A DNA stretch of 54,790 nt, taken from Patescibacteria group bacterium (lineage in GTDB: Bacteria; Patescibacteriota; Patescibacteriia; Patescibacteriales; GWC2-42-12). Numbering within the stretch: position 1 is the first letter of the stretch; each line of letters opens with the position of its first letter. Location of the stretch: NCBI GenBank assembly GCA_028703305.1, contig JAQVNC010000001.1:1-54790 (forward strand), given 5' to 3'. The notes below the pieces were generated by a model, which worked only from the letters and a program-made list of their open reading frames with translations, was not told the DNA's origin and ran no database searches. A program made the translations under genes and the position numbers. Positions 5,768-54,790 of the stretch are shown in pieces.

Positions 5768-7219
5768 CTAAACTTTGCTTAAATCCAAATAATCATCAAA
5801 CTTTATTTGCTTAACGAAATCAGGCATATGGCTAACCATTATCATAGCGCCCTCGTAATTATCAATTGCCTTGGCAATTACCGGCAAATGGCGAAAATTA
5901 ATATGGTTGGTTGGTTCATCCAAGACTAAAAGCCCCGGTTGCATAATCGTTAAGCGCGCGAAAGATAATAATCCTTTTTGCCCTTCGGACAGTTCTCTTA
6001 CTTTCCTGCCCATTAAATCTCCACTGATTAAAAAACCGGCCGCGATTGAACGCATAGCCTGCGTGTCTACGCCTTCTATTAAAGCGCCGGAGAGAGAATC
6101 AAAAACCGTTTGGCTAAAATCCAAATTGGAAAAATCTTGGCTATAATAGCCAACGCGAACTTTATCTAAGATTTTCGCGTGTTCATTTTTGCTTGAGACC
6201 AGCGAGCGCAAAAACGTGCTCTTGCCCACGCCGTTCGGCCCGGTAACTAAGAGGTGCATGCGCTTACGGATTATTTTATCAGCTTCTTTTATTATTGGCT
6301 CATGATTATGAATAACCTTGACGGCGCTGATTTTAACAATCTCGCCGGCAATATCTTGAGCTTTGATATCAAATTCTCTGATAGTTTTATCTTCTTGCCT
6401 GACGTCAACCATATCTTCTTCAAGCTCGGCGGTCTCATCTTTAAGCTTCTTGGCCAGTTTGCGCATCTTGCCGCCCTTATTGGCGAAAAAATTCACTTTT
6501 TCTTTTCTGTCTATAATCTGCTTTTTAAGCTGGGCGTTTTTTCTCTGTTCGCGCTCAACCCGCTTACTAATCTCTTCAACCACGGAGAAATAATCGCCGA
6601 CGTAAGTTTCAATTTTATGGGTAAAATTATCTAAGTAAATAACGCCCTCGGTAAAACAATTTAAAAAATCCGCGTCATGCGAAATGACTATGGCGGTTTT
6701 ATTGTACATGACTAAAAATTCAATCAGATGATCAATGCCGGCCTGGTCAAGATTGTTGGTCGGCTCGTCCAGCAAAAGGATATCCGGATTTTGGATTAAG
6801 GCAAAAGCCAATAAAAGCCTGGCTTGCTGCCCGCCGGAAAGCTCGCCCACTCTACGGTCGGTCGGCACGCTTAAATTTACCACCTCTAAAACTTTGGAAA
6901 TTTTACTGGCTAAATTAGGCTGTTCCATTTCAAAAGCTTTGGCAAAATATTCTTGAACGGTTAAAGCCAAATCTTCTTGCGCCATAACTTGGCGAGCCGT
7001 CGCGATAGAGGCGCCGTTAGTTATGGAAACCCGGCCCGATTTAGGCTTTAACTCGCCCATAATCAAGGCAAACAAAGAGCTTTTGCCCGCGCCGTTTTGC
7101 CCCATTAAAGTTATTTTGGCGCTTCGGCGGACGCTAAAGCTGGCCTCATCTAAAATAGGCTTGTTATGCTCATATTCAAATGTCACTTCATCAAATCGTA
7201 AAATTACTTCTTCGGCCAT
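5768..7219 (-). CDS. ABC-F family ATPase
   Basis: Two ABC cassettes (Walker A GQNGAGKS and GPNGVGKS; signatures LSGGQ and LSEGQ) joined by a charged linker, no TM domain; start moved to ATG 7219. Confidence 0.85.
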   Translation of the reverse strand: MAEEVILRFDEVTFEYEHNKPILDEASFSVRRSAKITLMGQNGAGKSSLFALIMGELKPKSGRVSITNGASIATARQVMAQEDLALTVQEYFAKAFEMEQPNLASKISKVLEVVNLSVPTDRRVGELSGGQQARLLLAFALIQNPDILLLDEPTNNLDQAGIDHLIEFLVMYNKTAIVISHDADFLNCFTEGVIYLDNFTHKIETYVGDYFSVVEEISKRVEREQRKNAQLKKQIIDRKEKVNFFANKGGKMRKLAKKLKDETAELEEDMVDVRQEDKTIREFDIKAQDIAGEIVKISAVKVIHNHEPIIKEADKIIRKRMHLLVTGPNGVGKSTFLRSLVSSKNEHAKILDKVRVGYYSQDFSNLDFSQTVFDSLSGALIEGVDTQAMRSIAAGFLISGDLMGRKVRELSEGQKGLLSFARLTIMQPGLLVLDEPTNHINFRHLPVIAKAIDNYEGAMIMVSHMPDFVKQIKFDDYLDLSKV

Positions 7220-7285
7220 AAAAAAATAAAAAGGCGTGAATTGCGCCATTAAAGTTAATATAACATATTATTCGAAAAAGTCTAG

Positions 7286-10377: not shown

Positions 10378-11886
10378 TTAATTATTTTTTAAATAAATAT
10401 AATTCATTAAATTGCGCTCATACCATTTTTTGTCCGCTATTATTTTTTCCTTTTTGTTAATCCAGGCGGACCAATCAGACTCTCCGGCGCCCGAGCCGGG
10501 ATAATAGACTTTATCTTTAAGCAAGCCTTCGGCTTTGTATCTTTTTATGAGCTGGAGCACGTCCGGAGACAGCATCGTTAATTCATGTAATTTTATCCGC
10601 GATCCATTCAACTCGGAAAGTTTTACGTTAGCGCGCAGTATAAACTGTTCAACTGGAAAAATTGCGATTAAACCATACATGCAGACAAATAATATAATCA
10701 CAAATTTAAATATATTTGATCGGTTTTTAACAAATAATCTTGAAATTAGCCAGATAAATAAAATGACGCAATAAATAACCGTGTATGAAGCAAATAATTT
10801 TTCATAGCTGAAGCCATAATAAGTTACATAAAGCTGCATTCTGTGGGCGGCCGAAATGAGCAATAAAAGAGAAGCGAACGTGAAGACCGTCAAAATTCTT
10901 TGCACAATTAAAATAGTTTTTCTGTAAGTAAAAAAATAAATTATTATATTTATTATTGATAAACAGAACAATTGCCAAAAGCCGCTTTTTACAAATTGTT
11001 CCGTGTCCTTGAATTCAAAAGGCAACGAACCGACCCAGAGGCGCCCGACTTGCACCCAAAGAAAAAGCAAATAAATAATTAGGATGCCGCCTAAAACAAT
11101 GCCCGAAATAATGGGGTCAATTTTGTAATTATTTTCCTCTTTCTCCCGGTAATCAAATTTTTTATTCCAAGCAAAAAGCATTGAAAACATTAAAACCGAT
11201 AAAATTATTGAGGCAATAATTTTGTAGATAAATATAAGCGAAACATGCGCATTGATCCAGCTGTAAATAAACTCCGTTTTACCGGAAAACACTTTATCGG
11301 CCGATGATAAGAGAGGGATTATAACGGTTAGAGAAATGATTAAAAATAAAAGAATGCCGGCGGCGACTTTCGCGATTATTCTTTTTTTGTTTTTACCAGC
11401 GGGGATAATTAATTCTATATATAAAATTGCCGCTAAGCCGATTTTGCTTAAAAAAGAAAAAAACCTTTTTATCATTTTAAATAAAAAATAAAAATCCCAA
11501 TGCCTAGCCTCTTTATTTTCTAAGCTTAGATAGTTGTAAAAAAACGCAAAAATTACCGGCAAAATTAATAGGCTGATAATTTTCAGAAACGGATTGTCGT
11601 AGATTAAAAAACTTAAAATTATTGAAAAAATCGGGGCTAGCCAGATTAAATCATTTATGCTGAATTTTACTTTTTTATAAATAACCCCAAAAAATAAGCC
11701 GCCAAAAAGAGACAGAAAAATAAAATAATTAATTCCCAGGGCGTAAATTCCCTTCTGCCAAAACCCCCAAATAAAAATAACCCAAAAAATGGCCAGGCCG
11801 GCGCATAAAAGCAATCGTTTGGCCGATGGCTTGGCCGGACTGATTTCTTCACTATTATTTTTTAAATTTTCGTTAAAATTATTCAT
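10378..11886 (-). CDS. large polytopic membrane protein (DUF4153/DUF4173-like)
   Basis: 502 aa with more than 10 predicted TM helices; family name uncertain. Confidence 0.5.
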   Translation of the reverse strand: MNNFNENLKNNSEEISPAKPSAKRLLLCAGLAIFWVIFIWGFWQKGIYALGINYFIFLSLFGGLFFGVIYKKVKFSINDLIWLAPIFSIILSFLIYDNPFLKIISLLILPVIFAFFYNYLSLENKEARHWDFYFLFKMIKRFFSFLSKIGLAAILYIELIIPAGKNKKRIIAKVAAGILLFLIISLTVIIPLLSSADKVFSGKTEFIYSWINAHVSLIFIYKIIASIILSVLMFSMLFAWNKKFDYREKEENNYKIDPIISGIVLGGILIIYLLFLWVQVGRLWVGSLPFEFKDTEQFVKSGFWQLFCLSIINIIIYFFTYRKTILIVQRILTVFTFASLLLLISAAHRMQLYVTYYGFSYEKLFASYTVIYCVILFIWLISRLFVKNRSNIFKFVIILFVCMYGLIAIFPVEQFILRANVKLSELNGSRIKLHELTMLSPDVLQLIKRYKAEGLLKDKVYYPGSGAGESDWSAWINKKEKIIADKKWYERNLMNYIYLKNN

Positions 11887-11977: not shown

Positions 11978-12049
11978 GGTGGCTACAGGGAATTGAACCC
12001 TGGTATCTAGGACCACAACCTAGTGTTCTACCATTGAACTATAGCCACC
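11978..12049 (-). tRNA. tRNA-His (GTG)
   Basis: Cloverleaf; anticodon loop TTGTGGT; extra 5' G(-1) opposite C73; T-arm CAGGGTTCAATTCCCTG. Confidence 0.9.
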
Positions 12050-12122: not shown

Positions 12123-12644
12123 TTAAATTAGCTGTTTAACGGCTATTTTGCGCGTTTGCCAGAGTAAAACCGCTTCATACGCGCCAACTAACACGCCGGT
12201 ATAGAATAAATCGCCGAGCAAGCTGTTTCTGAAAAATGGAATGGCCATATAATAGCTTTGCATTAAGCCGGCTATAGTATGAGGATAAAGCGAGCCAAAC
12301 GCCCAAACCGCGGCGTTGGTAATTAGATAAAACATCATACTGCCCAAAATCGTTCCGCCTAAAACCGTACTTAATTTTTTATTTTTTCTGACCATTAAAC
12401 CAATTAAACCCATGATAATAAAACCGGCGTAGACCGACAGCATAATCGGCCAAGTGTAAAAACCGATAAACAAGTCGCTAAAAAACATAGCGGCTAAAGG
12501 CAAAACAACCGCCCATTTTTTCGGAAGATACAAGCCGGAAAAAATCGCGATGGCGCCGATGGGCGCGAAATTGGCCGGGTGCGGCAAAAATCTGGCCGCG
12601 ATGCCTAAGGTGATTAAAATAAAGACTGGCAGATACTTTTTCAT
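12123..12644 (-). CDS. DUF6580-like putative vitamin transporter (ECF S-component-like), last gene of the riboswitch operon
   Basis: 173 aa with 5-6 TM helices; N-terminus MKKYLPVFILITLGIAARFLPHPANFAPIGA typical of this family (from memory). Confidence 0.6.
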   Translation of the reverse strand: MKKYLPVFILITLGIAARFLPHPANFAPIGAIAIFSGLYLPKKWAVVLPLAAMFFSDLFIGFYTWPIMLSVYAGFIIMGLIGLMVRKNKKLSTVLGGTILGSMMFYLITNAAVWAFGSLYPHTIAGLMQSYYMAIPFFRNSLLGDLFYTGVLVGAYEAVLLWQTRKIAVKQLI

Positions 12645-12672
12645 AAAATTATATTTATAATTTAATTATAGC

Positions 12673-14733
12673 CTAAAAATCAAGTAAATTCAAAATATAT
12701 CTAAAGCCTCTATAAATTAAGTGTCCGGCCAAGGCTAATATATTCTCTTTGGGCGCGGACGGACTGGCCGACGGCGCTTGAACAACATTATTAACAGCCG
12801 AGACATTCTCCGGCCGTGCTATTTCTTGGTTTTGTTTTTTTGCTATTTTTTTACTCCCCGCATTTTTCGGCTCTAACAAAATTATTTTCTCGGCTAAAAC
12901 TTTTGGCTCTAACGGCTTAATCGGTTCAGAAAAAACATCAGCGGCTTTTTCCACTTCCGGCTCAACTTTTTCTTCGGCTTTAACTTGGAGCATATCTTCA
13001 GTACTGCTGGCCGTTAGTAAAATCTCCAGCGTTGAAGTGGCAATATCTGATATTTCCAAAGTTGAAGTGGCAATATTGCTATCGCTTATATCGGCCCGGC
13101 CAAAAGAATCAAAAACAGCTGTTTTTTCCTGTTTGGAAAAACTTTGCATAATATTAAACCATGGCTTATTCTGTGCCGCCGGAATGGCATAAGCGGTTGA
13201 CCAAATGCGGTTAGCTTCATAGGCATTGTCTTTTTCCAAGCCGCCGTCAACTCCCTGGCTTAACGCCAAATAACTTTCCGGCGTATTATTATTTTTTAGC
13301 CAGCTACCCGCGTTTTCGCCCAAAGCCGCGATTGCCTGCATAACCCAAGCGGTGGCATAAGTATTGCCATAGCCGCCATCAATGCCTTGCGCGTTAAACA
13401 AAAAATTTCTGGCTTTTAGCAAAGCCGCGGCAACGCCATCAAGCGATGGCAATGGCTCTAGCGCCTGAATTGCCGCGGCTGTTAAATCGGCGCCGCCGAA
13501 TGAACCATCGGCTTGCTGTTTTGTAATCATAAACTCAACGGTTTTTTTTATCATTTCATCATCAGCGCCATAACCGGCTTTATTTAAAACCAAGAGCGCG
13601 AAAATGTCATCATTATATAAAGAAGCGTCGCCAAATTGTCGGCCATCATATAAATCAGTAATTTTTTTTATGTAATTTGTCTTAACGCCGTCATAAGGGC
13701 TGATATTTAATGACATTAAGGCTATGGCGCGGCGCGCGTAATCAGATACTAAATTCATACCCGCAACCGCGTCCGGGTCGGTTAATAAATAATTTCTGGC
13801 TTTTTGGCCGGCAGAACCGTTCGGATTGGCCGAAGCTAAAGCTATGGTTGACCAATCGGTTTGCAAAGCCGATCCGAAAGAGCCGTCCGCGGCTTGCTTG
13901 GCAATTAAAAAATCTATGGCTTTGCCTAAATCAATTTTTGGCTTTAATAAAGGGGCGGCCATGGCGCTACCACCCCCGCCTCCGCCGGACGCGGCCGGCA
14001 AAATTACGCTGTTATTATTGCTTGGTTGATTATCGTCATTGCCATCGTCATTAACCGGAACTTCCTGTGCTGTGATAGTAACGCCGTCGCTATCAATATA
14101 ACCTGTCTTTTTGCCATAAATTAAAACCGGCACCGTGGCGGTAGCAATATACTCATAAACTCCGCTGGTATTTTCCGCGTCTAAACCGCCTATAACTAAA
14201 GTGCTGGAAGCCGCCAGGGACCAAACCGGATTCCAGCTCGCGTCCAAACCAAATTGTTCTAAAGTAATAGTAGAAGTGGCATTAACATAAGGCGCGGCAT
14301 TATCCGTGGAAATTTTTAATGGATTAATATTGTAGGTTAATAATATTTTTTCGCCATCGGAAAGCGTGTGCTTATTTAAAGCCGCCGACCCATAGTCAAG
14401 ATTGCTAAACCACGCCCAATAAACTCCGTTGCCCGCGTCATTATTTATATAACTGCCGATGGAATTTAAAAATACATCATCGCCCCACCAGCTCCAATCG
14501 CTTGCCAGCCCTGATTGCTCAACCGCGCATTTAGCATTAACCGAAGTGGTACTGGCGCTTTGGCTATCAACGCAAGCGGTGACGGCAATATCGGCGTCAT
14601 ATAAAACAGCGTCATGAGTTTTAACTTGCAGCCTAATCGTCGTAGTGGCCGTGTCGGCTTTAGCCTGGCCGGCCATTAGAAAAAAGCCAATTGAAATTAT
14701 TATAAAACTTAGCTTAAAAAGATTTTTTTTCAT
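12673..14733 (-). CDS. secreted DUF4430-like beta domain plus prenyltransferase/squalene-oxidase-repeat (alpha/alpha toroid) protein
   Basis: 686 aa; signal peptide; N-terminal domain ending DGEKILLTYNI; poly-Gly linker; repeated QxADGSFG / GIDGGYG motifs; hydrophobic C-terminus. Confidence 0.7.
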   Translation of the reverse strand: MKKNLFKLSFIIISIGFFLMAGQAKADTATTTIRLQVKTHDAVLYDADIAVTACVDSQSASTTSVNAKCAVEQSGLASDWSWWGDDVFLNSIGSYINNDAGNGVYWAWFSNLDYGSAALNKHTLSDGEKILLTYNINPLKISTDNAAPYVNATSTITLEQFGLDASWNPVWSLAASSTLVIGGLDAENTSGVYEYIATATVPVLIYGKKTGYIDSDGVTITAQEVPVNDDGNDDNQPSNNNSVILPAASGGGGGGSAMAAPLLKPKIDLGKAIDFLIAKQAADGSFGSALQTDWSTIALASANPNGSAGQKARNYLLTDPDAVAGMNLVSDYARRAIALMSLNISPYDGVKTNYIKKITDLYDGRQFGDASLYNDDIFALLVLNKAGYGADDEMIKKTVEFMITKQQADGSFGGADLTAAAIQALEPLPSLDGVAAALLKARNFLFNAQGIDGGYGNTYATAWVMQAIAALGENAGSWLKNNNTPESYLALSQGVDGGLEKDNAYEANRIWSTAYAIPAAQNKPWFNIMQSFSKQEKTAVFDSFGRADISDSNIATSTLEISDIATSTLEILLTASSTEDMLQVKAEEKVEPEVEKAADVFSEPIKPLEPKVLAEKIILLEPKNAGSKKIAKKQNQEIARPENVSAVNNVVQAPSASPSAPKENILALAGHLIYRGFRYILNLLDF
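13023..13082 (-). repeat. 2 x 30-nt in-frame tandem repeat
   Basis: GTTGAAGTGGCAATAT at 13031-13046 and 13061-13076; encodes SNIATSTLEI / SDIATSTLEI. Confidence 0.8.
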
Positions 14734-15232
14734 ATTTCCATTCTATAACGTCGCCATTTTTTAATTTATAATTTGATATTCCGACCGGCGACAACTGGCC
14801 ATTAACATAATACAACCAATTTTCTCCGGCCGGATTATTTTTTAAGCCATTAATTTCTTCCACAAAAAAGCCCAGCCCGGAATAATTTTTACCCGCAAAA
14901 TTAATTTTGTTCTCTTGTTTTAAAACTTCCATCAGCTCGTAAGCCGAACCGCCAGCTTTAATTTTAGTTTCATATTTAGTGCCGCTGATTATCATGACGG
15001 CTTTAATTTTTTCTTCAACAGGCGTTTCAGCTTTTTCACCCCCTTTATTAAAGGGAGCCGGGGGGATTTTATTTTTTTCAGGCGCGATAGCATTGGCTTC
15101 AACTGGTTCACTTTGTTTTTCAGCCACAACCGGCCGCTCGTTTTTTTCTTGAGTTAAAAAAACCGCCAAACCGCTGGCCAGGGCTATTAGCAAAAATAAA
15201 ATAAAAATAATAATTAAATTTTTTGTTTTCAT
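14714..15232 (-). CDS. membrane-anchored DUF4430 (transcobalamin-like beta domain) protein
   Basis: Start reset to ATG 15232 (MKTKNLIIIF...); C-terminal WLYYVNGQLSPVGISNYKLKNGDVIEWKY; 20-nt overlap with the next gene. Confidence 0.7.
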   Translation of the reverse strand: MKTKNLIIIFILFLLIALASGLAVFLTQEKNERPVVAEKQSEPVEANAIAPEKNKIPPAPFNKGGEKAETPVEEKIKAVMIISGTKYETKIKAGGSAYELMEVLKQENKINFAGKNYSGLGFFVEEINGLKNNPAGENWLYYVNGQLSPVGISNYKLKNGDVIEWKYEKKSF

Positions 15233-15235
15233 AAC

Positions 15236-15259
15236 AAAAAACCTGCTTCTCAAAGCAGG
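15236..15259 (-). terminator. riboswitch expression-platform terminator
   Basis: Minus strand CCUGCUU-UGAG-AAGCAGG plus U6, ending 3 nt before the AUG. Confidence 0.7.
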
Positions 15260-15305
15260 AAATATAAAAAATATTCTTTCTCTGCTCGGAGAAATATCTA
15301 AAATA

Positions 15306-15382
15306 ATCAGCATTCTGGCTTGTCCCCTAGGGGCATTACAGCTGCGGCACAGCGCCTCGAATCGCACGAGGACTTTCCTGAT
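15306..15382 (-). promoter_or_regulatory. cobalamin riboswitch aptamer (short, AdoCbl-variant/Cbl-II-like)
   Basis: P1 AUCAG/CUGAU; CCUCG-UGCGAUU-CGAGG; GCUGUGCCGCAGCUGUAA core; AAGCCAGAAUGC B12-box-like; parallels the btuB leader core. Confidence 0.8.
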
Positions 15383-15466
15383 ATATAAATTATTTACTCT
15401 GTTAAATTGAACTATTATTTAGCAAAGTAATTTTACTATAACAAATTTTGAAAATTAATCAACCTG

Positions 15467-15538
15467 TGCTCCCGGGGGGAATCGAACCCTCATCGCGGCC
15501 TTAGAAGGGCCTTGTTCTATCCATTGAACTACGGGAGC
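15467..15538 (-). tRNA. tRNA-Arg (TCT)
   Basis: Acceptor GCTCCCG/CGGGAGC; anticodon loop CTTCTAA; T-arm GAGGGTTCGATTCCCC. Confidence 0.85.
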
Positions 15539-23677: not shown

Positions 23678-25166
<1,489 letters not shown>

Positions 25167-25371: not shown

Positions 25372-25445
25372 GGGCATGTAGCTCAGCTGGTTAGAGCGCC
25401 ACACTGATAATGTGGAGGTCCCAGGTTCGATTCCCGGCATGCCCA
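25372..25445 (+). tRNA. tRNA-Ile (GAT)
   Basis: Acceptor GGGCATG/CATGCCC; anticodon loop CTGATAA. Confidence 0.9.
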
Positions 25446-25507
25446 CCCTCCTATGCTCTTCCACTTCGTTTCAGAGCTTCGGAGGACAAGCCATTATAGG
25501 ATTGTCT

Positions 25508-25744
25508 ATGTATTATGTTTATATTTTATTTTGCTCGGACAGAACTTATTATATAGGGTTAACTGAGAATATTAAAAAAAGAATAGTACAACATAAAAAC
25601 AGTTTAGTTGGTTATACAAAATACAGATTGCCAGTTAAGGTTGTTTGGATAGGAATATTCAAAAATAAAAAAATTGCGGCTAGTTTTGAACAATACTTAA
25701 AAACCGGATCTGGCAATGCATTCTTTAAAAAAAGATTAGTTTAA
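25508..25744 (+). CDS. small GIY-YIG nuclease-family protein
   Basis: 78 aa from ATG 25508: MYYVYILFCSDRTYYIGLTENIKKRIVQH; the track ORF start at 25412 runs through tRNA-Ile. Confidence 0.8.
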   Translation: MYYVYILFCSDRTYYIGLTENIKKRIVQHKNSLVGYTKYRLPVKVVWIGIFKNKKIAASFEQYLKTGSGNAFFKKRLV

Positions 25745-25781
25745 TTCGCTAAGCTTGCGATACGAAGCTTTAGCGTAGTAT

Positions 25782-25857
25782 CGCGGGGTAGAGCAGTTGG
25801 CAGCTCGCCAGGCCCATAACCTGGAGGTCGCCGGTTCAAATCCGGCCCCCGCAACCA
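25782..25857 (+). tRNA. tRNA-Met (CAT), initiator type
   Basis: 5' CGCGGGG with C1xA72 mismatch; anticodon loop CCCATAA; CCA encoded. Confidence 0.85.
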
Positions 25858-25950
25858 TCCTTCACTCCTCCGTTTCACTTCGGAGTTACGGATGGCAAGC
25901 CGTTATATTTTAGGGCTTGCCCTCCATAGCTCCGCAAGGAGCGACGGAGA

Positions 25951-26025
25951 GCCGGGGTAGCTCAGTGGTAGAGCAAATGACTGAAAATCATTGTGTCGTG
26001 AGTCCGATTCTCACCCCCGGCACCA
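25951..26025 (+). tRNA. tRNA-Phe (GAA)
   Basis: Acceptor GCCGGGG/CCCCGGC; anticodon loop CTGAAAA; CCA encoded; unusual T-loop TCCGATT. Confidence 0.8.
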
Positions 26026-26039
26026 TTATCAATTGAACT

Positions 26040-26110
26040 CGGGCTGTCGTATACCGGTAGTACGCATGCTTTGGGAGCATGTTGACTGGGTTCAATTCCC
26101 AGCAGCCCGA
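26040..26110 (+). tRNA. tRNA-Pro (TGG)
   Basis: Acceptor CGGGCTG/CAGCCCG; anticodon loop TTTGGGA; T-arm CTGGGTTCAATTCCCAG. Confidence 0.85.
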
Positions 26111-26202
26111 CAAAATTTCGTGAGGCCTTTATGGCCTTAGAAATTTTTGTTTGGTTGATGGGCGGCAGCGAATCCAGCGTGTCGGAGTGGGGCTTCCGCC
26201 CC

Positions 26203-26222
26203 TTCAATTCCCAGCAGCCCGA
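26203..26222 (+). repeat. exact 20-nt copy of the tRNA-Pro 3' end
   Basis: TTCAATTCCCAGCAGCCCGA is identical to 26091-26110; no matching 5' acceptor strand upstream. Confidence 0.9.
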
Positions 26223-26363
26223 CCCTACTTCGCCAAGGCTTCGTAGGACAAGCCGCCATAATTAGCGGGCTTGCCCGCCGTAGCTTTTGCGACAGCAAAA
26301 GCGTATTTCTAATTTGCGACATTTAGCGGGCTTGCCCGCCGAAGCTCGCAAAAGCGAGCGTAG

Positions 26364-26435
26364 GCGGGTATCGTATAGTGGCTTTTATGCTAGCCTTCCA
26401 AGCTGGAGAGAGGGGTTCGATTCCCCTTACCCGCT
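26364..26435 (+). tRNA. tRNA-Gly (TCC)
   Basis: Acceptor GCGGGTA/TACCCGC; anticodon loop CTTCCAA; T-arm AGGGGTTCGATTCCCCT. Confidence 0.9.
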
Positions 26436-31299: not shown

Positions 31300-31353
31300 G
31301 TTTTATGTTATGTTATAATTTATATTAGATTGATATTATTAAACTATTTGATT

Positions 31354-31830
31354 ATGAAATCAAAAATCATTTTCATCTCACTTCTTTTACTAGTATTTTT
31401 TTCAATTCCTCTATCAATGGCTAATGCTGGAACATGCAAAAAGGGTGTTGAAACTGGCGGTCCCTGCCAAACAACAGTTGATTGCACAAATACAAATTAT
31501 GCCGGATATACCTGCGACACAACTAATCCTGCCACCTCCGGCACCGTCTCCCTCCCCAACCCAATTACTATCCCTGACGCAAATAAAGCCAACCCCATAC
31601 CCTACCTCCTCGGAATAGTTATCAACTCCGTTCTCGGCATTGTCGGTTCTTTAGCTTTGGTAATGTTCATCTACGGAGGAATTACATGGATGCTGTCGGC
31701 CGGCAATCAGGAGCAGGTGACTAAAGGCAAAAACATTTTAATCTGGGCGGCTGCCGGCATTGTTATTATTTTTACGGCCTACGCTCTAGTCAAATTTGTC
31801 TTAACCACGGTAACGGGAACCGGCGGATAA
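31354..31830 (+). CDS. TrbC/VirB2-like (T4SS-type) pilin paralogue with Cys-rich ectodomain
   Basis: Signal peptide ...SMANA; four Cys in CKKGVETGGPCQTTVDCTNTNYAGYTCD; core IYGGITWMLSAGNQEQVTKGKNIL between two TM helices. Confidence 0.7.
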   Translation: MKSKIIFISLLLLVFFSIPLSMANAGTCKKGVETGGPCQTTVDCTNTNYAGYTCDTTNPATSGTVSLPNPITIPDANKANPIPYLLGIVINSVLGIVGSLALVMFIYGGITWMLSAGNQEQVTKGKNILIWAAAGIVIIFTAYALVKFVLTTVTGTGG

Positions 31831-34547: not shown

Positions 34548-35015
34548 TTACCATGACCAGGAGACTGGCATAACTCCGGTAGTCATGTATATGAGCCGAT
34601 TTAAGACAAAAGTAGCGATGGAAAAAGCTACTAAAATTATTACCAAACCGATGATGCCGTTAATTAACTGTTTTTTAGCCGATTCAACATTCTCTTCATT
34701 GCCGCCGGCCGTCATCCATCTAAACCCGGCATAAATAATAATCACTAAAGAAATTATACCCAATAGTTCCAAAATAATTCTAATTACTCTGGCTACCATA
34801 ATCCTGATATCATTATTCTCGTCCGCGGGATTAGTCTGGCCGTAAGCCGTGCCGCCAATTTCCTTAAGCCCGCCATTATTAACCGTATTCCACCAGCCCT
34901 CGGCTTTAACCTGATTAGAACCATTTAAATCAACTCCAACCGGCATTAAGCTCAAGCAGATGGACAAAAAGATAGCGCTTAGGCTATACTTTAAGATTCT
35001 TTTAGTCATAAACAT
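34548..35015 (-). CDS. TrbC/VirB2-like pilin paralogue
   Basis: Signal peptide; core IIIYAGFRWMTAGGNEENVESAKKQLINGIIGLVII between two TM helices. Confidence 0.7.
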   Translation of the reverse strand: MFMTKRILKYSLSAIFLSICLSLMPVGVDLNGSNQVKAEGWWNTVNNGGLKEIGGTAYGQTNPADENNDIRIMVARVIRIILELLGIISLVIIIYAGFRWMTAGGNEENVESAKKQLINGIIGLVIILVAFSIATFVLNRLIYMTTGVMPVSWSW

Positions 35016-46308: not shown

Positions 46309-46776
46309 TCAATTTGGTTTTAGTGGGGTTAGATTTTCACCGCTAGTCCCAGTAGCGCCCGTTCCTGCGCCTGCGCTTCCCGGCAGATTGCTAAACACAA
46401 AATAAGTTATGGAATAAGCAAGAATAATAATAACCAGACCGATAACCGCGCGGGTAATTGTATCTTTAGCTTTAGTCACTTTTTCCTCATCCCCTTGCGC
46501 CGTCATCCAAAGAAAACCCGCGTAAATAATTAGCACTAAAAAGATAATACCTAGAAGGCCTAAAAAAGCTTTAATACCTGTAGCCATAATACCTGACAAA
46601 CTATTAGCGCCAGTAGTTACGTCTCCGCTGCCCCATGATGGCCGGCCGGCATTATTCAGTTGAGTTCTTAGGTCAGCATTAACTCCGGCGCTAGCATTTT
46701 GAGCTAAACAAAAATTTATTGCCAATGAAAATAATAATACCGCCAATATAATTTTTTTAAAATATTTCTTTAACAT
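46309..46776 (-). CDS. TrbC/VirB2-like pilin paralogue 1 (last in the array)
   Basis: Signal peptide; core IIYAGFLWMTAQGDEEKVTKAKDTITRAVIGLVII; G/A/T-rich C-tail. Confidence 0.7.
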   Translation of the reverse strand: MLKKYFKKIILAVLLFSLAINFCLAQNASAGVNADLRTQLNNAGRPSWGSGDVTTGANSLSGIMATGIKAFLGLLGIIFLVLIIYAGFLWMTAQGDEEKVTKAKDTITRAVIGLVIIILAYSITYFVFSNLPGSAGAGTGATGTSGENLTPLKPN

Positions 46777-47245: not shown

Positions 47246-47716
47246 TTACTCGCCTTCGCCGCCGCCATCCGGGTACTGTGTCGCTGCCGGCGTTGTCCCA
47301 GCGCCCGTTGTATTTGCGCTACCACCGCCATTTAAAGTTCCGGCCGCTAACTTATCCATAACAAAAATACTAATGGCATAGGCCGCTACCACGATTATTA
47401 TACCGACAATCGCTCGTGTTATTGTTTCTTTAGCTTTAGTAACTTTTTCTTCTTCGCCCCTGGCCATCATCCAGTTATAACCCGCGTAGACCATTAAGAT
47501 TAAAAAAACCACGCCTAATATAGATAGGGCTCCGCTTATTACTGTGTTTATAATTGTAAAAAGTTTATCTCCAGAAGCATCTTGATATCCACCCTCTGTC
47601 ATGCTTACGTCTTGCAACTTGCCTAAAGCCGCGTTGTCAGCAGACACTAAATGCGGCAGCATAATAAAAGCAACCAGCCAAACTAACAAAATAATTTTAA
47701 AATATTTTTTAAACAT
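47246..47716 (-). CDS. TrbC/VirB2-like pilin paralogue 3
   Basis: Core MVYAGYNWMMARGEEEKVTKAKETITRAIVGIII; G/T/A-rich C-tail. Confidence 0.7.
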   Translation of the reverse strand: MFKKYFKIILLVWLVAFIMLPHLVSADNAALGKLQDVSMTEGGYQDASGDKLFTIINTVISGALSILGVVFLILMVYAGYNWMMARGEEEKVTKAKETITRAIVGIIIVVAAYAISIFVMDKLAAGTLNGGGSANTTGAGTTPAATQYPDGGGEGE

Positions 47717-52733: not shown

Positions 52734-53903
52734 TTACTGCTTTATCGGCATAATAATATACAAATAACTATCATCTTGTCCTGCCTGCGCAGTTAGGTCC
52801 GGCTTAATAATACAAGGCGTATTGGAATCTATAACTTCAATTTTAATCGTTTCTTTTTCAATATTGTTTAAACCCTCCAAGAGATAGCGGTAATTAACTA
52901 CTATACTATTATCATCTCCCGACACTTTAGCCTCTAAATTGGTTATATTTTCTCCGGTTTGCCCGGAAACAGAAGAAATCACCACTTGATTTTTACCGGC
53001 CGGAAAATCCAAATTAACATCATTAATGCCGGCCTTAGAAAACAAAGAAGCCATTTTTACGGCGCGAATTAATTCTTGCCGGTCAATAGAAATTTTAGTT
53101 TTACTGTTGCTGGGAATAATTTGCTGATAATCCGGATATTGCCCCTCAATTAAGCGCGACACCAATTCGGTTGAGCCGTAAGTAAATAAAATTTGGTTTT
53201 CTGAAATATAAAATCTTATTTCGGAATTTTTTTCTTCCACCTCATCATCCAAATTAACCGATAAAATTCTTAAAAGCTCCTGTAAGGTTTTAGCCGGCAC
53301 AATAATTTTTTTTTCTTCCTCGCTGTTTGATTTAATTTTAATTTTTTTCTCGGCCAAGCGATAACTGTCGGTCGCGGCAATAGTTAAAATGCCGCCCGAA
53401 AAAGAAAACAGCACGCCGGATAATTCCAACCTGGTTTCACTTACGGCTGTGGCAAAAATTACCTGCGAAATCGCCCTTTTTACTTCTTCAGCCTCGGCAT
53501 AAAAATAATTTTTCCGGTCCACCTCCGGTATTAAAGGAAATTCTTCAGCTGATTGGCCTTTGACTTTAGCTTGATAGTTTTCACAATCAACCAATAAATC
53601 ATTTTCTGTTTGCTCTAAGCCGATTTTTTTATTTGGCAAAAGATTTATACAGTCGGAAATTATTTTTGAACTAACCGTATAAAAACCCTCTCTCTCAATT
53701 TTCCCCCTAACCGTGCTAATTACGCCTATTTCCAGGTTAGTGGCGATCAATCTTATTTTTCCCTCTTCAGCCCTTATTAAAACATTATTTAATATAGGTA
53801 GGTTTACGTTTTTACCGGAAACATGGCCAACCAACGCCAGGCCTTGTTTTAGATTTTCTTGCAAACTGAATATTTTTAACCCGCCGGGAGTTTGATTTGT
53901 CAT
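52734..53903 (-). CDS. dnaN: DNA polymerase III beta sliding clamp
   Basis: 389 aa; three-domain clamp pattern; position directly downstream of dnaA. Confidence 0.85.
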   Translation of the reverse strand: MTNQTPGGLKIFSLQENLKQGLALVGHVSGKNVNLPILNNVLIRAEEGKIRLIATNLEIGVISTVRGKIEREGFYTVSSKIISDCINLLPNKKIGLEQTENDLLVDCENYQAKVKGQSAEEFPLIPEVDRKNYFYAEAEEVKRAISQVIFATAVSETRLELSGVLFSFSGGILTIAATDSYRLAEKKIKIKSNSEEEKKIIVPAKTLQELLRILSVNLDDEVEEKNSEIRFYISENQILFTYGSTELVSRLIEGQYPDYQQIIPSNSKTKISIDRQELIRAVKMASLFSKAGINDVNLDFPAGKNQVVISSVSGQTGENITNLEAKVSGDDNSIVVNYRYLLEGLNNIEKETIKIEVIDSNTPCIIKPDLTAQAGQDDSYLYIIMPIKQ

Positions 53904-54154: not shown

Positions 54155-54790
54155 TTAACTGCTGTAAATCACCTGTTTAATAGAGTCTACGTGTTGTTTT
54201 ATTTTTTCATCTTCTTGGCACTCCCGTTCTATTTTGTTATACGCGTGCATGGCTGTGGTGTGGTCGCGGCCGCCCAGTTCTTGGCCGATGGATGGGTAGG
54301 AGGCGTTAATTTCTTTGCGCATTAAATACATGGCGATTTGTCTGGGCACGACCAATTCTTTTTTACGGCTTTGCCCGACCAGATCTTTGATGTTTATGTC
54401 AAAAAATTTGGCGGCCGCCTCAATAATAGTTTTAGCCGTGGTTGATTTTGATTGAAAATTGGAAATTATGCCGGCTAAAATGCTTTTGGTTGAATCTATG
54501 GAAGGCAAGGAGTTATTAAACTCATAATAAGCGATTAAACGGTTTAAAGCGCCCTCTAATTCGCGGATGTTGTTGGTGATGTTGTTGGCAATATAGGCTA
54601 AAATTTCCCTATCAAGCTTATAATTTTTTTCCCGGCACTTGGTTTCAAGGATAGCGATTCTGGTTTCTAGATCCGGCGAGCTAACGTCAGCGATCATCCC
54701 CCACTCAAAGCGCGATAATAGCCTTTTTTCCAGAGCCGGTATGGCTTTGGGCGGCCGGTCGGAGGAAATTACTATTTGTTTGTTGGTTTG
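54155..54790 (-). CDS. dnaA: chromosomal replication initiator DnaA, C-terminal part (5' end outside the window)
   Basis: The frame stays open to the window edge (…QIVISSDRPPKAIPALEKRLLSRFEWG…); domain IV VVPRQIAMYLMRKEINASYPSIGQELGGRDHTTAMHAYNKIE. Confidence 0.9.
   Translation of the reverse strand, partial: QTNKQIVISSDRPPKAIPALEKRLLSRFEWGMIADVSSPDLETRIAILETKCREKNYKLDREILAYIANNITNNIRELEGALNRLIAYYEFNNSLPSIDSTKSILAGIISNFQSKSTTAKTIIEAAAKFFDINIKDLVGQSRKKELVVPRQIAMYLMRKEINASYPSIGQELGGRDHTTAMHAYNKIERECQEDEKIKQHVDSIKQVIYSS

Follow-up and report, generated by a model that had tools for sequence, protein, structure and literature searches.

A riboswitch-preceded operon of Patescibacteria encoding transcobalamin-like surface proteins and a DUF6580 membrane protein, and its predicted role in cobamide scavenging

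Bacterial relatives of the animal vitamin B12 carriers were described in a purely computational study of transcobalamin-like proteins that combine SLBB domains with an alpha/alpha toroid and were predicted to scavenge B12 (Burroughs, Balaji, Iyer & Aravind 2007, Biol Direct 2:4; PMC1796856). These proteins are secreted or surface-exposed, carry the SLBB domain on either side of the toroid (in front of it in Bacillus) and are often encoded in an operon with a second, paralogous SLBB protein; their hosts usually lack B12 synthesis, and animals were proposed to have gained transcobalamin from Gram-positive bacteria (PMC1796856). Here we analyse a three-gene operon (genes A, B and C) in the DNA of a Patescibacteria group bacterium (GCA_028703305.1, contig JAQVNC010000001.1, positions 1-54,790 of the forward strand; this whole stretch of 54,790 nt is hereafter called the window), in which a comparable pair of proteins is encoded together with a membrane protein of the DUF6580 family behind an adenosylcobalamin (AdoCbl)-type riboswitch. 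Patescibacteria, or the candidate phyla radiation (CPR), have minimal biosynthetic capacity, and the way they acquire cofactors is largely unknown.

Three further systems serve as points of reference. PDB entry 6FNP is the energy-coupling factor (ECF) transporter ECF-CbrT, which carries vitamin B12 (PMC5997447), and the B12 transporter BtuM, whose identification relied in part on its co-localization with btuB, is found chiefly among alpha-, beta- and gamma-proteobacteria (PMC6072759). The ECF-like system Lsa1836-1840 of Latilactobacillus sakei has been linked experimentally to heme uptake (bioRxiv 10.1101/864751).

Set beside these systems, the permuted transcobalamin architecture of our operon is not new, as it has been known in Bacillus and other bacteria since 2007 (PMC1796856). 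The novelty lies in the distribution across CPR, in riboswitch control that is nearly universal, in the placement of DUF6580 as a CbrT-related S-component and in the occurrence of such an operon without an ECF module. We found none of these four points in the searchable literature, which returned nothing relevant on DUF6580, on Patescibacteria cobalamin riboswitches or on CPR in combination with cobalamin and ribonucleotide reductase.

The operon and its proposed function

We propose, with a probability of about 0.75, that the operon is a cobamide (vitamin B12) scavenging system that is shut off by its own product. The proposal builds on domain identities, folds, gene order, riboswitch presence and conservation, all of which were computed directly. 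Since the toroid of B is not specific to transcobalamin, we base the B12 assignment on the beta domains, on the riboswitch and on gene context.

Genes A, B and C form a tightly packed minus-strand trio between two tRNA genes (15467-15538 and 11978-12048), with an overlap of 20 nt between A and B and a gap of 28 nt between B and C. A first-pass annotation, made from the letters of the sequence, had already placed the three open reading frames (ORFs) at these positions, and all the peptides that it quoted are found in the translations. Each computational check that it had proposed came out in line with its interpretation. Its start codon for gene A, ATG 15232, is likewise retained over the upstream GTG 15367 of a mechanical ORF list, because positions 15242-15394 are taken up by the aptamer and the terminator. 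From upstream to downstream, the features of the operon are the following (pLDDT, predicted local distance difference test score):

15435-15462, minus strand: promoter-like site (TTGATT, 16-nt spacer, TG-TATAGT), a candidate promoter by consensus scan only
15266-15394, minus strand: cobalamin (AdoCbl-type) riboswitch aptamer (RF01482, 38.3 bits, E 8e-6)
15236-15259, minus strand: intrinsic terminator of the expression platform, CCTGCTTTGAGAAGCAGG followed by a T-run (terminator scan)
14714-15232, minus strand: gene A, 172 aa, DUF4430 protein (PF14478, E 5.9e-19)
15152-15220, minus strand: N-terminal membrane anchor of A (aa 5-27)
14726-14935, minus strand: C-terminal DUF4430 or transcobalamin-like beta (SLBB) domain of A (aa 100-169)
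12673-14733, minus strand: gene B, 686 aa (AlphaFold model, pLDDT 80)
14656-14733, minus strand: signal peptide of B
14326-14649, minus strand: DUF4430-like domain N1 of B with two invariant Cys (aa 29-136)
14062-14325, minus strand: Ig-like beta domain N2 of B (aa 137-224)
13129-13944, minus strand: alpha/alpha toroid of B, after a Gly-rich linker (aa 264-535)
12742-13113, minus strand: disordered stalk of B with the IATSTLEI repeat (aa 541-664)
12676-12741, minus strand: C-terminal hydrophobic helix of B
12123-12644, minus strand: gene C, 173 aa, six-helix DUF6580 protein (PF20221, E 5e-50)

In the model that we favour, a promoter downstream of the tRNA gene would drive a leader of about 195 nt carrying the AdoCbl-type aptamer and the terminator. 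With cobamide plentiful in the cell, the aptamer would bind it and transcription would stop at the terminator hairpin just before the start of A; with cobamide scarce, the leader would be read through and A, B and C would be transcribed together. A and B would then be exported, and flexible linkers would keep them attached to the cell surface. As in transcobalamin, intrinsic factor and haptocorrin, the corrinoid would be clamped between the toroid of B and a beta domain, which could be N1 of B itself in a permuted order or A as a split partner. Intrinsic factor that has been cleaved by proteolysis into alpha and beta fragments can reassemble around B12, so that a clamp formed by two chains is plausible. 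The captured corrinoid would be passed on to C, which would move it across the membrane either alone, in the manner of BtuM, or with an ECF module encoded elsewhere. Ligand binding, the hand-over from protein to protein, the energy source and the use of transcription termination as a switch are the steps that we infer, and solitary transport by C is much less certain than the scavenging function as a whole.

Leader RNA, protein domains and gene context

The first-pass annotation had placed the operon under riboswitch control within the range 12123-15232. A riboswitch element does exist, but it lies outside that range, at 15266-15394. It was missed in the window both by a scan at the Rfam gathering score and by a 4-kb E-value scan, and was recovered only by a 271-nt Rfam scan. 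The promoter-like site is situated between the tRNA gene 15467-15538 and the aptamer, about 40 nt upstream of the latter, the aptamer precedes the ATG of gene A by 34 nt, and a GC-rich terminator hairpin ends 4 nt before that ATG. The expression platform resembles a transcription terminator, and the anatomy of the leader suggests the logic of an OFF switch.

Orthologous operons, in which the first-pass annotation had suggested looking for cobalamin riboswitches, carry them as well (related loci are cited by number, L001 and so on). An AdoCbl or AdoCbl-II match lies directly upstream of the A orthologue in each of L002-L006, and four of these five matches exceed the cut-off (RF01482 with 52.3 bits in L004 and 51.7 bits in L005; RF01689 in L002 and L003). 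Nine of 14 further loci that we sampled have a match at the gathering score upstream of A (L025 58.9 bits, L065 57.4, L020 54.5, L021 54.3, L057 52.8, L016 52.4, L031 52.4, L023 50.9 and L073 50.6). An nhmmer profile of the aptamer core detected it upstream of A in 54 of the 56 A-B-C loci with sufficient upstream sequence to assess, and a hairpin with a T-run follows the core in 47 of 56 under a permissive criterion. When 15 elements were aligned, the CUGUGCCGCA.C.GUAA and AAGYC.G blocks proved invariant and 9 of 14 predicted pairs, distributed over three helices, showed double-sided compensatory changes. Because relatives have above-cut-off elements at the same position, and because the core is conserved and the stems covary, the window element is, on the evidence of these alignments, a genuine and slightly divergent cobalamin riboswitch. 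The Rfam cut-off overlooks a subset of the Patescibacteria riboswitches that belong to this operon.

Gene A encodes a membrane-anchored protein with a C-terminal beta domain, as the first-pass annotation had it, and the DUF4430 match of this domain is strong (68.7 bits against a PF14478 cut-off of 23.8). Anchor and domain are joined by a low-complexity linker that varies among the orthologues, some of which have a lipobox in place of the transmembrane (TM) anchor. Single-sequence searches of the PDB gave no match for either A or C, and family profiles were required. The A-family profile, built from 25 orthologues, placed haptocorrin (4kki residues 324-429, E 3.5e-4) and intrinsic factor (residues 306-385, E 8e-4) at the top of its PDB matches, with transcobalamin at E 0.67. 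By profile comparison, the domain of A is detectably homologous to the B12-binding beta domains of the eukaryotic carriers.

In gene B, the QxADGSFG and GIDGGYG repeats, the poly-Gly linker and the IATSTLEI repeat of the tail, all noted in the first reading, are legible in the translation. The AlphaFold model divides the protein into two beta domains (residues 30-135 and 137-220), a toroid (269-530), a disordered segment (541-664) and a helix (665-683). Twelve helices make up the toroid over residues 269-528, most of them with pLDDT >90, and both the model and Foldseek identify the core as an alpha/alpha toroid. The domain order is permuted, as had been predicted: beta domain, Ig-like domain, linker and toroid follow one another, so that the toroid is not N-terminal to the beta domain. 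Most B homologues end in a C-terminal TM helix followed by basic residues, which indicates that B is tethered to the surface on a long stalk. The architecture varies among relatives: the number of N1-N2 modules ranges from zero to two, further Ig-type domains occur in some, and the toroid is always present.

The Pfam matches of B are all sub-threshold (SQHop_cyclase_C 1.1e-4, DUF4430 2.4e-3, TED_complement and Cobalamin_bind 0.01). N1 scores 18.7 bits against PF14478, under the cut-off, and B scores 15.3 bits against PF01122 (Cobalamin_bind), whose cut-off is 25. The first domain of B, which the first-pass annotation had called similar to that of A, is recognised as DUF4430-like at the level of the family: PF14478 is matched by 21 of 50 B homologues (best E 1.7e-16), and the beta domain of intrinsic factor by the N1 family profile (E 0.012). 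SQHop_cyclase_C is matched by 45 of the 50 homologues and Cobalamin_bind (PF01122) by 41 at E <= 0.01 (best 7.3e-8). A Foldseek search with full-length B returned terpene cyclases, the complement TED and transcobalamin/intrinsic factor together, at E 5e-7 to 1e-4; chains of the transcobalamin, intrinsic factor and haptocorrin type had a probability of 1.00, and intrinsic factor 2pmv_B a target-normalized TM-score (TMt) of 0.61. The membership of the B toroid in this fold is certain, and neither sequence nor structure places it nearer to transcobalamin than to the class II terpene cyclases.

Gene C matches PF20221 with 170 bits (cut-off 27). The first-pass annotation had counted five to six TM segments and had named DUF6580; the model (pLDDT 85) has six helices and the fold of an S-component. 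Its best fold match in the PDB is BtuM with bound hydroxycobalamin (8ovv, TM-scores 0.62/0.61), and the next nine matches are ECF S-component chains (PanT, the S chain of 4huq, ThiT, RibU and FolT). A narrow C-family profile gave a single weak PDB match, 6fnp_A (E 1.4). An exhaustive search for C relatives returned 5,745 clusters at E <= 1e-3, and a broad profile built from 57 sequences again had 6fnp_A as its sole PDB match, now at E 1.8e-4 (24.5 bits, 141 positions); chain A appears to be CbrT, judging by its length of 182 aa and its 'membrane protein' label. At the profile level, the relation between C and CbrT is one of remote homology and not of orthology.

The B homologues all belong to Patescibacteria (Falkowbacteria, Magasanikbacteria, Parcubacteria, Paceibacteria and others), and relatives of C occur in at least 519 species-level genomes in a scan of one genome per species. 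Among the best 80 species-level Patescibacteria loci, on which our synteny counts are based, the order A-B-C is found in 60, A and C only in 11, and nine are cut by a contig end. As the neighbourhoods differ between loci, the A-B-C trio is a unit. Many GTDB representatives that hold the operon at 60-85% identity are titled 'uncultured Gammaproteobacteria bacterium' (L012, L016, L019, L020, L022 and others); these titles look like mislabelled taxonomy of metagenome-assembled genomes.

Two loci of the Paceibacteria type, L005 (414-6704) and L006 (389-7830), have the order nrdJ, S-component gene (PF07155), AdoCbl riboswitch, A, B, thioredoxin-like gene and DsbB gene. Their nrdJ encodes a class II, B12-dependent ribonucleotide reductase whose RNR-II insertion domain scores above the cut-off, and its adjacency is a direct link to a B12-consuming enzyme; nrdJ lies close to the operon in these two loci only. 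Since the riboswitch comes after both nrdJ and the S-component gene, neither of these would be subject to it. The presence of a thioredoxin-like and a DsbB gene is in keeping with the invariant Cys pair of B N1. The S-component of L005 is a distant homologue of C that passes PF07155 (30.0 against 26.7 bits). The narrow C profile gave an hhalign probability of only 3.8% for it, despite a full-length collinear alignment with 27% identity, and the link is better supported by PF07155 and the common fold than by hhalign.

In about 11 loci, B and C are separated by a fourth gene, which encodes a lipoprotein of about 120 aa with a lipobox (for example L004 6644-7009; also L019, L023, L028, L032, L039, L043, L047, L052, L056 and L081). 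This lipoprotein weakly matches the A-family profile in several loci and may, from that similarity, be a third beta-domain protein. A thiamine pyrophosphate (TPP) riboswitch was also detected in L004 (556-648, minus strand, 68 bits, above the cut-off), upstream of a thiamine pyrophosphokinase gene. As this locus has both the TPP element and the B12 operon, such reduced genomes can hold at least two vitamin-sensing riboswitches.

Alternative explanations and the rest of the window

The same machinery could serve another tetrapyrrole, with A and B capturing heme, another porphyrin or a corrinoid precursor and C importing it. This possibility draws on the L. sakei operon, which encodes the same three protein types and whose deletion lowered heme uptake (bioRxiv 10.1101/864751), and on the L. 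curvatus counterpart, which is homologous to B and C and has no cobalamin riboswitch. We consider it improbable for the operon described here, since (i) a cobalamin-class riboswitch precedes the operon in the window and in 54 of the 56 assessable A-B-C relatives, (ii) the operon adjoins the B12-dependent nrdJ in L005 and L006, (iii) the nearest characterised relative of C is the B12/cobinamide transporter CbrT, (iv) DUF4430 surface proteins of Levilactobacillus brevis stand behind a canonical RF00174 riboswitch and (v) the heme case of L. sakei is partly docking-based.

A and B might also sequester cobamides, for competition or storage, or act as host adhesins without feeding C, whose substrate would then be unrelated. 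CPR bacteria live attached to hosts, and B varies greatly in architecture, with additional Ig-like, HYR and Big domains of the kind usual in adhesins; A-C pairs without B make up 11 of the 80 loci, most of them without a riboswitch. Surface sequestration or adhesion without transport is possible for A and B, and leaves the strongly conserved C unexplained. The riboswitch-controlled unit always ends with C, whose identity is about 80% against about 60% for A and B; C is a relative of CbrT and BtuM, and in lactobacilli the same trio is tied to an ECF importer. Taken together, these observations make sequestration or adhesion as the sole role about as improbable as a different tetrapyrrole.

Whether the RNA element of the window is a decayed remnant, which would leave the operon constitutive, was considered in view of its score (38.3 bits against the RF01482 cut-off of 50), of the outer P1 stem, which is left unaligned in the match, and of the fold of the whole leader, which is no more stable than that of shuffled sequences (z = -1.4). 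The syntenic locus L001 has a 90-nt aptamer core that is 100% identical amid diverged flanks, with compensatory changes in the stems, including the terminator stem (CCCGC..GCGGG). The window, L001 and L016 share a CUG..CAG variant of a helix that reads CGG..CCG in the others, and L016 carries this variant and yet reaches 52.4 bits, above the cut-off. The terminator of the window leader is intact. Decay is accordingly, in our estimate, slightly less probable still than the two alternatives above. That B is instead an enzyme acting on an isoprenoid or envelope substrate, with unrelated neighbours, as would follow from its best toroid sequence and profile matches (squalene-hopene cyclase, drimenyl diphosphate synthase) and from the equally enzymatic NCBI names of its homologues ('terpene cyclase/mutase', 'prenyltransferase/squalene oxidase repeat'), is very improbable, as a D.DD regular-expression search found DxDD nowhere in B and DDxxD was absent from the toroid (N-D-D-I-F-A, conserved at residues 374-379, belongs to the fold as a helix-start motif), B comprises one toroid, of about 270 aa, where a cyclase has two domains, its signal peptide, surface tether and disulfide pair make it extracytoplasmic, it is fused to and operonic with beta domains of the B12-carrier type under a B12 riboswitch, and the matches are confined to QW-type helix repeats common to the fold class, including transcobalamin and the complement TED.

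Several observations weigh against cobamide scavenging, in addition to the heme phenotype in L. sakei and the sub-cut-off score of the window aptamer. The family profile of the toroid is nearer to squalene-hopene cyclase (2.4e-10) than to transcobalamin (0.85), a single-sequence PDB search with B gave only weak squalene-hopene cyclase matches, and Foldseek fails to separate transcobalamin from terpene cyclases and the complement TED for B. His is absent from the B toroid, which leaves the His-Co ligation of transcobalamin without a counterpart in B; intrinsic factor and haptocorrin are likewise not known to use this ligation. C has no Cys, and at most 27 of the 57 family sequences share a Cys column; in the absence of the invariant cobalt-ligating cysteine C is not a member of the BtuM family, and a BtuM-like way of working is possible. 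The A-C-only loci mostly lack a cobalamin riboswitch (they include L015, L018, L038, L046, L069, L076 and L080, with a tRNA gene directly upstream of A in L015, L018 and L038; L025, L051 and L063 are exceptions that carry one). A NrdJ search and Pfam scans of the window ORFs found no B12-dependent enzyme in the window.

Neither the window nor the 86 related loci yielded an energising module. The first-pass annotation had seen neither an ECF module nor BtuCDF in the window; none is present among the Pfam-scanned window ORFs of >=150 aa, and the statement extends to within <=5 kb of the trio in the 86 related loci (858 kb in total), where, as in the window, an EcfT homologue was lacking. Four window ORFs stood outside the Pfam scan and were named by synteny with L001 only (GreA, integrase, NYN and PNPase). 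A double ABC (ATP-binding cassette) ATPase of 493 aa at 5768-7249 (minus strand) was considered as an ECF ATPase and rejected, as it is a ribosome-associated ABC-F protein (NF000355, E 1.5e-92). ECF modules of group II usually have their genes elsewhere in the genome.

A wider hypothesis, which we put forward tentatively and regard as doubtful, is that DUF6580 proteins might be solitary, ECF-independent cobamide importers loaded by a surface 'split transcobalamin', in which A closes on the B toroid. The operon would then be the main B12 route of hundreds of Patescibacteria species, supplying, among others, their class II ribonucleotide reductase, and it would preserve in living bacteria a version of the ancestor of animal transcobalamin and intrinsic factor. 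If so, the DNA synthesis of these episymbionts would depend on B12 taken from their neighbours.

Cobamide scavenging, the function that we favour, would make the operon a concrete and testable route of B12 uptake that recurs in at least 519 species-level genomes. Its small, riboswitch-flagged set of proteins suits a first biochemical test of the B12-binding prediction of 2007, and it bears on S-component-type function independent of ECF modules outside the BtuM and BioY cases. The annotations 'terpene cyclase/mutase family' and 'DUF6580 putative transport protein' in such genomes should be re-read as parts of a cobamide scavenging system. A specialist would not be surprised by this outcome, which offers a handle on B12 binding by bacterial transcobalamin-like proteins and on the cofactor supply of CPR.

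Elsewhere in the window, a DUF4153 multi-pass membrane protein of 502 aa (10378-11886, minus strand) is encoded directly downstream of the operon, past the tRNA gene; L001 has no DUF4153 gene at the matching position downstream of C. A full-length 16S rRNA gene at 23678-25166 (plus strand) is followed by several tRNA genes at 25372-26435, the window has no 23S or 5S match, and the rRNA genes appear unlinked. The end of the window holds dnaN and the C-terminal part of dnaA (52734-53903 and 54155-54697, both minus strand), and the window therefore probably borders a replication origin. Four small paralogous ORFs, spread over 16 kb, match a type IV secretion pilin family (PF18895 / TrbC-VirB2):

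31330-31830, plus strand: PF18895 / TrbC-VirB2 paralogue
34548-35015, minus strand: PF18895 / TrbC-VirB2 paralogue
46309-46776, minus strand: PF18895 / TrbC-VirB2 paralogue
47246-47716, minus strand: PF18895 / TrbC-VirB2 paralogue

Relation to known systems

The A and B pair of the window fits exactly the description of the transcobalamin-like systems given by Burroughs et al. Their operons contain genes for a CbiO-like ATPase and a CbiQ-like membrane protein, whereas the partner in the window is a lone DUF6580 protein, and the 2007 study covered neither riboswitch control nor the CPR lineage.

The operon of L. sakei and Latilactobacillus curvatus (L087) has a separate toroid protein, a DUF4430 protein and an ECF S-component, that is, the same three types of protein. 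The L. curvatus-type toroid is homologous to that of B (hhalign 96%, E 1.5e-9), and the S-component of the same type to the C family (hhalign 77%, E 2.2e-5). Unlike the window, this operon encodes EcfT and a fused EcfA-A'; its toroid protein is anchored by an LPXTG motif and lacks a DUF4430 domain, and the L. curvatus operon has no cobalamin riboswitch. Operons of lactobacilli were found with the DUF4430 domain of A, and a tblastn search of plasmids with B gave no match. On the L. brevis plasmid NZ_CP145112.1 (L088, 3662-8149), an RF00174 riboswitch (59.1 bits) precedes three genes, encoding a 740-aa DUF5776 and DUF4430 surface protein, a 348-aa 'fucose-binding lectin II' and a second DUF4430 protein, which adjoin cobS and an ECF S-component gene. 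We examined the 348-aa protein as a homologue of the B toroid and found the match unconvincing (hhalign 3%).

Among characterised transporters, ECF-CbrT of Lactobacillus delbrueckii (6FNP; PMC5997447) has the six-helix S-component fold in common with C, and the nrdJ-cbrS-cbrT-pduO cluster of this species (PMC5997447) resembles the order nrdJ, S-component, A, B in L005 and L006. CbrT alone gave no uptake and requires a shared ECF module, whereas no such module was found near the operon in the window and the 86 loci. BtuM of Thiobacillus denitrificans (6FFV/8OVV; PMC6072759) is a small protein of the S-component fold that works without an ECF module, which is the mode that C would need if its genome has none. 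Cys80 of BtuM is invariant, ligates cobalt and is essential (PMC6072759), in contrast to the Cys-free C, and the two proteins have no significant sequence similarity.

The eukaryotic carriers transcobalamin, intrinsic factor and haptocorrin (PF01122 and PF14478) consist of the same two building blocks, an alpha/alpha toroid and a beta-grasp domain, and the model of B overlaps their alpha domains with TM-scores of up to 0.61 (intrinsic factor). Relative to these carriers, the order of the two blocks in B is reversed, an Ig-like domain and a long linker are inserted between them, and a second beta domain resides on the separate protein A. The carriers are soluble, whereas A and B are membrane-tethered.

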